From NCBI RefSeq assembly GCF_016026235.1, contig NZ_CP065614.1: DNA of 64,000 nt; one strand, 5' to 3'. Position 1 is the first letter of the stretch. The number at the start of each line of letters is the position of its first letter. Positions 9,001 to 12,000 of this stretch are shown piece after piece. The position numbers are program-made. The stretch comes from Escherichia coli. Its GTDB lineage: Bacteria > Pseudomonadota > Gammaproteobacteria > Enterobacterales > Enterobacteriaceae.

Positions 9001-12000
9001 CAGTTTCGAATCAAACTGACAGTAGCTGCGTTTTTTCTCCAGACAGACACCCGGCACTTTCTTCGAACAGAACTCTCCGACACTAACGGTCAGTTTGTCT
9101 GATTTTGCTTTAGCCAGGGCTTTTTCATCACTGCTGCATTTAGCCAGCCCGATATCCTGCCCCCAGCCGCTGTCCTTACAGCAATTGCTGTATCCGGCTG
9201 CAGCCTTCTTACAAAATTTCGCCTGACCGGTGAAAGCACGGACATCCACCCCGTTCAGGGCGGCAACATCCTTACCTGCGGCGGCAAGCGCAGCCAGCTG
9301 TGATACTGCCTCACCAAAATCACTGCTTTTTCCGCTCTGTGCCTTATCGCATTCACCGTCAAGGCAGAAGACATCACCACCACAGACCATCACTTTTCCT
9401 GATGTTTTTGACTCGCAGGAATACGTGGCATACTCATGCAGACAGGTTCCCTCATCGGAATAAAACGCACACTGACGTGAGGCCAGCGTACAGGCCGGAT
9501 TATCGACATATTTCTGACAGGTACCATTATCTGCGGACTGTGTGACATATTTATCCCGGTATGCCCAGCACGCCTGTGTGATGCTCCAGGGTTTACCTTC
9601 CATCACACCTGTTTTCGTACCACCCGGCTCTGAACACTCTGTGCCTTTCAGCACGCCATCCGCTTTATTAAACGGACAACTCTCCACCCACTCCCCCCGT
9701 GGAACCCATTCTTTATCACGGACCTTCATCCTGAGTTTCAGCGTAAAGGTGGACGCGCCGCTGGCCAGTTTCTCATAAACCTGTCGGTCACCGTTCCCGC
9801 CAGAAAGACAGTTACCGTTAGCAGTACAGCCACTGCCGGTCAGTACCTGCCCCTGTGTCACCTGCAAACCTGTCGCCCCGGACAAGGGGAAAGTACCCGA
9901 CTGCCCGTTTACCAGGCCAACATTGAACGTTGAATTCATGAAGGTATAACGAGAATTCAGGAAGAAAAAAGCGGCGTATACAGACAATGATGCACTTTCC
10001 ACTGTACCGGTTACCGGAGCCGTGACACTGAACACCAGTTTCAGCCCGTTCATACTGAACCGGAACTGTGAGTGCGGTATCGTCACCTCACGATATTCAT
10101 CCGTGTATTTCCAGTCTCCGGTGATCCTGGCAGTCCGTGTGCAGAATTCCTCCACCATCGTGTCCCGTTCACAGGTATAGTTTGTGAATTCACTGCGGTT
10201 TATCTGCTGTGCACTACACTGCTGTCCGGTATTTCCCACAATGCTGTCAGCCCAGTTCACCACATCCCTGCCGGTCTGAATGAACGGTGCATCCGGTGAC
10301 AGAATGTCTTTCGGCTTGTTCATGAATGACTCTGTGATGGTTTTTCCGGTTTCACCGGTCGCCCATTCCGTGGTGCCGTCATTTTTCAGGCCGCCATCCC
10401 CGCCGGCAGTCACGCCACCGTAATATTTTGTCTCGTCCGGATTCGCGTTATAGCCGGGGATACTCTCCTGTGGCTTAAAGCCCTGAATACTGCTGCTTCC
10501 CTGCCCTTTGATCTGGTGAGCAAAATCAGAACCGGCCCGGTAATCACTGTTGCTGTCAGCCTGTGCCATGCCGGCAACCAGAGCCAGTATCAGAGGTAAA
10601 ATACGTTTCATTTCCCGGAATCTCCTTTCCCTGCCAGTAAATCATGAGCCACCTGCCGGCAGTCACCCGTGGCGGCCACTTTCTCCAGCGCCTGGCCGAC
10701 CCGCAGGTTTCCCCGGATGATGTCGTATCCCTGACTGCAGAACACCACCAGTGCCGGTACACTGCGAATGCCGTACTGTGAAAACAGCGTCGGGTCGATC
10801 TGAACACCATCAGTCGCGCCGTCTTTCACCAGGGACAACACAGCTTCAGCGGTGGTCTTCAGGTCATTGTTCACCATGCCCCGCAGTGTAGCCGGAATAC
10901 CGTAGTGCCGGGTTTCGCCCAGCATCCGTTTCAGCCCCTCTTCGGGAATGGAAAACGACACAAAATACAGGGCACCCTGCCGGGGTTTCCCGTCCTGCGA
11001 AGCCTGCTGTTTACGAACCAGCTCATCCAGAAAATGGTTATCTGAACGCTGAAGGGGGTTTTCCAGCACCTGTTTCTCCGCCCAGGCTTTCAGCTGATGG
11101 TCAGGTTTTTCACGCAGTTGTCTGCTTAAATTTTCCTGCTGCTTCAGGAACTGGCGGTTTTCAGGTGTGTTCACATTTTCTGAAGCATGAACAGCAAGAT
11201 GCATCCCTGCTGTCAGAGCAAAAAGTGCAAATATTTTCCGGTTCATGATATTTCTCACTTTCTGCTATTTACAGGCATGAACTCATCAGAAAAAAGATAA
11301 TTGAGAAAAACAGCCACAAACGCACATGTAAATGTCACCTTCAGATATAATCTGACAAGTGTCACTTGTTCTGATATATCTGCCATCTTCCATTCATGAA
11401 TAATTTCAGCGAGAAAACTGTCAGGTGCAAAATAAAATAATATAACGGGCACCATTACAAGACCAAAAGGAAATAATTTTAATGTTCTGCTTATCAGCAT
11501 GAGCAGCACAGTACTTATTTTCCTGAGGTGCTGAATATATTTACTGTCCATTGTTGCCATTTTCATTTCCTCTTATTCATTAAAATGATTTACAGGAATA
11601 CACAGTTACGTTTACGCCACATCAGGTAGCCGAAGTTTTTCTTTGTGTTGGGCGGATTTTTCCCGGTTTCCCAGCGGGTCACGCTGCGCCCGAACGGGTG
11701 GCACTGTCCGCTGTCCGGATACATATTCACCATCTGGTAACGCCAGCGTTCTTTGGGCAGGATTGGGGACGGATATTCATTACAGACGGCGTTATTTTTC
11801 CCGATGGTTTCCATAATCATGCCCTGACGGTGCAGCTTGAACGCCATGCGTTCACTGACCAGCAGGGAGGACTGCAACGGACTGGACTCATTACTCACCT
11901 GGCCATTGAACGGGTACATACTGCCCTGCGAACCGGCACACCAGAACAGAACATCGAGAGGCATATTAAAGGCGCTGGCAATGGCATCTGCTGCACAGGC

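Follow-up and report, generated by a model that had tools for sequence, protein, structure and literature searches.

A small gene in the variable traU–trbC slot of F-like plasmids encodes a predicted inner-membrane protein of an uncharacterised family

In plasmid F, trbC begins 8 nt past the traU stop codon and no gene separates the two. In the Escherichia coli plasmid DNA studied here (64,000 nt of contig NZ_CP065614.1, assembly GCF_016026235.1; the window), the same interval measures 343 nt. What does it contain, and does its content belong to the conjugation machinery around it? The original prediction described an AT-rich, hydrophobic ORF of 103 aa between traU and trbC, foreign to the canonical F gene order, and suggested comparing this interval across F-like plasmids. 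The ORF is present (minus strand, 11255..11566, 103 aa when counted from the first ATG), with a GC content of 0.35 inside flanks of about 55% GC, and the comparison with F bears out its non-canonical position. As the gene is unnamed, we refer to it as X, a label coined here.

X has two alternative starts, the ATG at 11566 (giving 103 aa) and that at 11560 (giving 101 aa). A Shine–Dalgarno-like sequence abuts the first ATG (0 nt) and lies 6 nt from the second, and the 101-aa form is the one annotated by RefSeq in R100 and in NZ_CP065612.1. Because of this spacing and this annotation, 11560 is the more likely start (Table 1). X then begins 29 nt after the traU stop and ends 8 nt ahead of the trbC ATG; its protein is identical to WP_000224419.1. 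The trbC model PRK13730 matches residues 5–216 of a longer ORF.

Table 1 Features of the traU–trbC slot and of the interrupted tra operon in the window.
Feature	Position	Strand	Remarks
Gene X (label coined here)	11255..11560	minus	101 aa + stop codon
Shine–Dalgarno-like AAGAGGAA	11567..11574	minus	Read from sequence
traU	11590..12582	minus	NCBIfam PRK13737 (1.3e-218); Pfam TraU (5e-109); conserved left flank
trbC	10608..11246	minus	NCBIfam PRK13730 (8e-135); right flank, ATG at 11246
Variable traU–trbC slot	11247..11589		343 nt, AT-rich, traU stop to trbC start
IS4-family (ISEc60-like) transposase gene	17898..19139		Between truncated traL and trbD
traL, truncated	19139..19384		Separate from X

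The composition of X sets it apart from its neighbours, with a GC3 of 0.34 compared to GC values of 0.52–0.60 and GC3 values of 0.56–0.73 for traU, trbC, traN and traW. Low GC is also a property of the tra genes traJ (0.335) and artA (0.337). The 343-nt gap contains a stop-free run of 105 codons, a length reached in 12 of 5,000 mononucleotide shuffles, and ORFs of at least 40 aa are lacking on the opposite strand at X.

Were X a recent insertion confined to this plasmid, or a spurious reading frame within AT-rich spacer DNA, its absence from F and the sharp shift in composition at the traU stop codon would fit. Against this, 1,226 PLSDB records contain the DNA of the ORF, and in 1,161 the identity is at least 95%; these approximately 1,160 plasmids, at 95–100% nucleotide identity, include R100. 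The slot is also where diverged alleles lie, there is evidence of purifying selection (below), and a search for direct or inverted repeats flanking X returned nothing beyond chance. The abundance in PLSDB, the R100 match and the dN/dS ratios together refute a private insertion or artefact, which is left with a negligible probability.

The R100 counterpart (WP_000224416.1) shares 96% amino acid identity with the window protein over 101 aa (E 1e-72), and its gene has the same position and orientation and identical junctions; the replacements from R100 to the window are A17T, R22M, I36M and N60M. This R100-type allele is carried by 823 of 5,426 complete E. coli genomes (about 15%), and 889 of its 895 places are on plasmids. 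The window and R100 proteins fall in one 90% cluster, whose 303 member sequences come from more than 1,000 contigs, and the names attached to X relatives at source are only 'hypothetical protein' or the positional 'Conjugative transfer protein'. Protein-level searching (tblastn) widens the family to 2,013 PLSDB records, among which are alleles at about 52, 44, 42 and 32% identity. TraU occurs in at least 5,000 records, making X a large minority component that is missing from more than half of TraU-bearing plasmids, F among them. On the point, raised originally, of whether most F-like plasmids with known tra function carry a homologue at this position, same-slot homologues do exist, but in a minority (about 2,013 versus at least 5,000 with TraU).

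Occupants of the traU–trbC slot homologous to X were located in R100, pHNAH33 (WP_000412447.1), pSLT-like plasmids (WP_010999945.1 in pSLT itself, equal to UniProt Q93GM9_SALTY), p1 SMBL, FDAARGOS_1290, S. Birkenhead and E. albertii p1RM9974. Diverged alleles at 24–60% identity share the slot in pSLT-like, F33-like and other F-like plasmids; the position was confirmed for every diverged F-like allele inspected, and the arrangement was seen in eight F-like plasmids besides that of the window. The family is narrow: of 1.84 billion representative proteins, a profile search picked up 48. X is thus what R100-type plasmids normally carry in a variable slot, annotated before as a hypothetical gene and belonging to an uncharacterised family. 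We found no description of it in the literature searched on traU/trbC ORFs, on R100/R1 comparisons and on F-like Tra proteins. The name 'yggA', a candidate for X among the R100 y-names, denotes IncI/IncM plasmid genes in the literature found.

We defined the X family by alignment; one alignment has ten alleles (24–96% identity) and a wider one 22 sequences. K28, P31, F42, Y43, P46 and W57 are invariant in the ten, and P31 and W57 are kept across the 22. The family motif reads KLFPF...FYFxP(D/E)...W...D...Lx(R/K)LYLK; the window protein possesses all of the invariant columns and scores 9.5e-47 with the family HMM. Purine-rich ribosome-binding motifs precede those F-like alleles that directly follow traU, and the frame is uninterrupted even where alleles exceed a dS of 1. 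Pairwise dN/dS among diverged alleles is 0.20–0.74, with an unsaturated pair (pSLT-like versus S. Birkenhead) giving 0.30 at a dS of 0.35. At the level of sequence, the dN/dS ratios, conserved ribosome-binding sites and conserved motif establish X as a genuine protein-coding gene. In the same plasmids, dN/dS is 0.00–0.14 for traU and 0.04–0.27 for trbC (but 0.41–0.55 for trbC in three comparisons with F). Judged by ratios several-fold above those of traU, constraint on X is weak.

Weak constraint (dN/dS up to 0.74) is what would be expected if X were a functionless or near-neutral hitch-hiker, lodged between two essential, packed genes and spread by recombination linkage with traU, trbC and traN. 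F and many other plasmids are transfer-proficient without X, and unrelated hypothetical genes gather in the same slot. The nucleotide changes between the window and R100 copies (five nonsynonymous, one synonymous) are compatible with relaxed constraint, in counts too small for a test. We nevertheless regard neutrality as unlikely: frame, ribosome-binding site and motif are kept at dS above 1 and in two types of type IV secretion system (T4SS), the unsaturated pair retains a dN/dS of 0.30, and a neutral ORF in DNA of 35% GC would soon gain stop codons.

In alignment with F, similarity runs precisely as far as the traU stop codon and returns past the region encoding the TrbC signal peptide, a part in which the window and F N-termini differ. 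We considered whether the odd TrbC signal peptide of F might be the remnant of a deleted X, and rejected this, as it aligns with the signal region of pSLT-type trbC. In some F-like plasmids the slot holds one to three genes, including unrelated hypotheticals of 59 to 180 aa, none of which has a Pfam match above the curated cut-off. Further accessory slots in F-like tra operons lie at traR–traC, trbC–traN (an HNH endonuclease) and traT–traD.

Comparison of X with its flanks points to allele exchange. R100 and pHNAH33 have identical TraU proteins (dS 0.056) and X proteins only 46% identical (dS 1.2). The window and E. albertii p1RM9974, whose slot contains two extra genes besides X, are similarly close in traU (dS 0.05) and trbC (dS 0.08) with X at 48% identity. 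These pairs indicate that X alleles have been traded between plasmid lineages in a cassette-like manner, via recombination in the conserved traU and trbC flanks; given those flanks and the lack of terminal repeats, homologous recombination is the simplest account. The suggestion that X is a horizontally acquired passenger therefore survives in part: X is optional, foreign in composition and recombinationally exchanged, but it is no novel insertion, being in archetypal order in R100 (96% identity).

The family extends beyond F-type systems. Those remote members with readable neighbours reside in T-type/IncX-like T4SS clusters. In an IncX1 plasmid, the order is T4CP, Cag12, TrbM, one hypothetical gene, X and a thermonuclease; one metagenomic contig has VirB9, VirB10, T4CP, an S26 peptidase, X and TopoIII, and a second has VirB8–11, Cag12, X and TopoIII. 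X overlaps the start of an SNase-type nuclease gene by 4 nt in two cases, and a YadA-like adhesin gene precedes it in two cases. The IncX-type version accounts for about 50 PLSDB records. A link with conjugation genes is expected equally for a selfish passenger, a defence gene or an exclusion gene. Few envelope subunits are common to the F-type and IncX-type systems, and no T4SS partner that X could have in both is obvious.

Kyte–Doolittle hydropathy of X peaks at about residues 29–48 and 73–93. An AlphaFold2 model built on the family alignment (pLDDT 83.4, pTM 0.66) places helices at residues 6–44, 47–59 and 62–89. The family alignment shows an acidic segment between the helices and basic residues flanking the two ends. 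By the positive-inside rule, basic flanks of membrane segments lie on the cytoplasmic side. We thus predict a two-pass helical hairpin in the inner membrane, with both termini inside because they are basic and the segment between the helices is acidic. The FYFxP(D/E) motif would end the first transmembrane helix just ahead of a putative periplasmic loop of roughly 25 residues, acidic and amphipathic, that presents the invariant tryptophan on a short helix. X gave no match to Pfam, NCBIfam, PHROGs, PADLOC or PDB sequences, and fold searches were uninformative.

Which known small Tra or Trb protein does X most resemble? In general character it is akin to TraS—likewise small, very hydrophobic, predicted to be in the inner membrane and encoded in the tra operon. 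Both genes are on AT-rich DNA (GC 0.347 for F traS and 0.37 for the R100 traS slot), and both show deep allele divergence among closely related plasmids. There the likeness ends. X has no sequence similarity to TraS (hhalign probability 0.1% for F TraS and 2.3% for R100 TraS), it is shorter (101 aa versus 149–173 aa), and TraS is encoded between traG and traT rather than between traU and trbC. R100, pHNAH33 and p1RM9974 each have a separate traS in the traG–traT slot alongside X.

The TraS-like signature (small, hydrophobic, inner-membrane, AT-rich) invites the proposal that X is a tra-coupled protection or immunity factor, acting as a second exclusion factor or blocking genome entry by pilus-specific phages. 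Deeply diverged alleles are swapped in near-identical backbones, X occurs in F-type and IncX-type systems, both of which make pili, and expression coupled to tra, as we infer it below, would be appropriate to a defence that only piliated cells require. Several observations run counter to this. X-bearing plasmids already have traS and traT. Among the handful of plasmids compared, X alleles are coupled neither to TraS type (pHNAH33 combines an F-type TraS with X; F has no X) nor to the traN backbone. None of ten family members matches PADLOC-DB v2 at E values up to 1, similarity to TraS is absent (hhalign at most 2.3%), and every comparison among the diverged alleles gives a dN/dS below 1, without any hint of diversifying selection. 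We therefore consider a protective role unlikely. Less probable still is the bolder version, in which X would be the first known case of a hitherto unrecognised, conjugation-coupled class of inner-membrane protection proteins, its periplasmic loop blocking pilus-dependent phages or competing conjugative DNA, and its allele turnover reflecting an arms race.

X shares its size class and predicted membrane location with TrbA, TrbE, TrbF, TrbJ, TrbD and ArtA of F, but is unrelated to them (hhalign probability at most 1.5%). Comparisons with TraL (VirB3/TraL family; hhalign probability 0.1%), TraQ and TraP likewise gave no relationship; in all, 17 small F or R100 proteins yielded no profile match. 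Searching the F and R100 tra regions with the family profile recovered no paralogue, and the window has no second copy. The 8-nt gap in F and the lack of a profile match exclude X as a canonical member of the F Tra/Trb set. The small Trb proteins of F are dispensable for transfer, and X should be too, because it is absent from F. Dispensability and co-transcription with T4SS genes are thus features that X would, by extension, have in common with the small Trb proteins; unlike these and ArtA, it is missing from F yet present in IncX-like T4SS clusters.

The architecture of the locus informs both expression and a further alternative. No promoter-like or terminator-like site beyond chance was found within or beside X, and there is neither an Rfam match nor an antisense RNA at the locus. 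Lacking its own promoter and terminator and lying upstream of the essential trbC, X would be transcribed and translated from the tra polycistron whenever the pilus and T4SS genes are on. Pilus assembly requires trbC, as cited in PMC7555446. A toxin-like or addiction peptide of the Hok, holin or type I kind would also be small, hydrophobic, AT-rich and plasmid-borne. X is about 100 aa with two helices, well above the size of Hok-type toxins (under about 60 aa); it is without a promoter of its own, an antisense RNA, an Rfam match or a partner antitoxin gene, and within its long operon it is followed by an essential gene. We know of no toxicity in derepressed R100-type donors, which would express X in every cell. 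A toxin is very improbable, and the three functions first guessed at for this ORF—exclusion, anti-defence and toxicity—gain no backing from the PADLOC searches, from the TraS comparison or from an architecture that does not resemble a toxin–antitoxin pair.

The explanation we prefer, with moderate confidence, is that X is a dispensable inner-membrane accessory to, or modulator of, the conjugative envelope machinery. As F transfers without it, X is no core subunit. Its conserved, periplasm-proximal surface may instead modulate the envelope machinery, this being the least certain step of the proposal.

The copy in the window has a particular setting. traE, traK, traB and traP are missing, with an IS4-family transposase gene in their place, and an IS66-family element separates trbE from traF. 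As read from this gene content, the tra operon is defective. The closest relatives are E. coli plasmids of roughly 294 kb that have kept traE, traK, traB and traP, and a match to the RnaG sRNA in the window marks its plasmid as pINV-like. Because insertion sequences break the operon, this copy of X is probably a passenger with little or no expression.

For the window, X is ordinary, a known hypothetical gene in a decayed tra operon. For the plasmid family, it is a widespread uncharacterised gene within a clinically important machine: in E. coli, Klebsiella, Salmonella and Shigella, resistance and virulence genes are carried chiefly by F-like plasmids. The F-like transfer operon has been treated as fully catalogued from plasmid F, yet X is missing there and present in R100 and pSLT. 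Whether X tunes transfer, exclusion or sensitivity to pilus-specific phages is of consequence for how plasmids spread and for the use of phages against them.

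The tra operon of the window cannot build a pilus or a type IV secretion system (T4SS). An IS4-family (ISEc60-like) transposase ORF directly separates trbD from a truncated traL (81 aa), so traE, traK, traB and traP are missing; the closest relatives, NZ_CP011417.1 and CP091399.1, have ~3.3 kb more at the traL–trbD region. An IS66-family element, splitting trbE from traF, is a second disruption. Despite the broken operon, the tra regulatory RNAs persist, with FinP, the traJ 5′UTR and an antisense-to-traG match all present.

Features of the window and of comparison loci (L-numbers, own coordinates)
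Feature	Locus	Position	Detail
antisense-to-traG RNA match	window	565-650	near window start
traF	window	4967..5716	
IS66-family element	window	5800-8250	transposase 6521..8122, plus strand; accessory ORFs upstream
trbE	window	8459..8737	
IS4-family (ISEc60-like) transposase ORF	window	within 17898-19384	413 aa, minus strand
FinP and traJ 5′UTR	window	20974-21085	intact, at head of tra operon
Matches to RNA domains of group II introns (D1-D4, domain V/VI)	window	24493-26792; 29515-29633; 54497-54615; 59322-59402	both strands
ALIL pseudoknot matches (n=3)	window	46727-46843; 53257-53373; 57196-57312	IS3-family frameshift signals
RnaG sRNA	window	51086-51205	full-length Rfam match, 158.5 bits
TrbC signal-peptide comparison	window; L009	10608-11258; 12379-12445	allelic
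X homologue and SNase/YadA-like neighbours	L006; L014; L016	2423-3225; 420-1243; 1606-3860	IncX-like T4SS clusters
HNH endonuclease gene, trbC-traN	L001; L002; L007	4072-4494; 3463-3882; 3416-3835	
Four hypothetical genes, traR-traC	L019	13173-14728	E. albertii p1RM9974

Homologues of X, the predicted inner-membrane protein gene between traU and trbC, lie in IncX-like T4SS clusters, where the homologue has a 4-nt overlap with the beginning of a gene for a secreted SNase/thermonuclease and, in two contigs, is directly preceded by a YadA-like trimeric autotransporter adhesin. The F-like plasmid R100 carries X as well as a thermonuclease gene; X is absent from F, and no thermonuclease gene is annotated in the examined parts of F. 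Plasmids carry different alleles of the TrbC signal-peptide region, reading MKLSMKSLAALLMMLNGAVMA in F versus MNRKIFALFALTAGMHLAVHA in R100 and the window, despite ~98% conservation of the mature protein. The F version resembles the pSLT type, pSLT being an F-like plasmid with a diverged X allele.

Variable accessory slots exist in F-like tra operons beyond traU–trbC. The trbC–traN interval holds an HNH endonuclease gene in many plasmids and no such gene in the window, and four hypothetical genes occupy the traR–traC interval of p1RM9974.

Outside the tra region, RNA domain matches indicate at least two or three group II intron copies or fragments. The three ALIL pseudoknot matches point to multiple IS3-family insertion sequences in the window's second half. 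RnaG is the antisense regulator of icsA/virG on invasion plasmids of Shigella and EIEC. Judged by its full-length match here, the source of the window is a pINV-like virulence plasmid carrying an F-like tra region.
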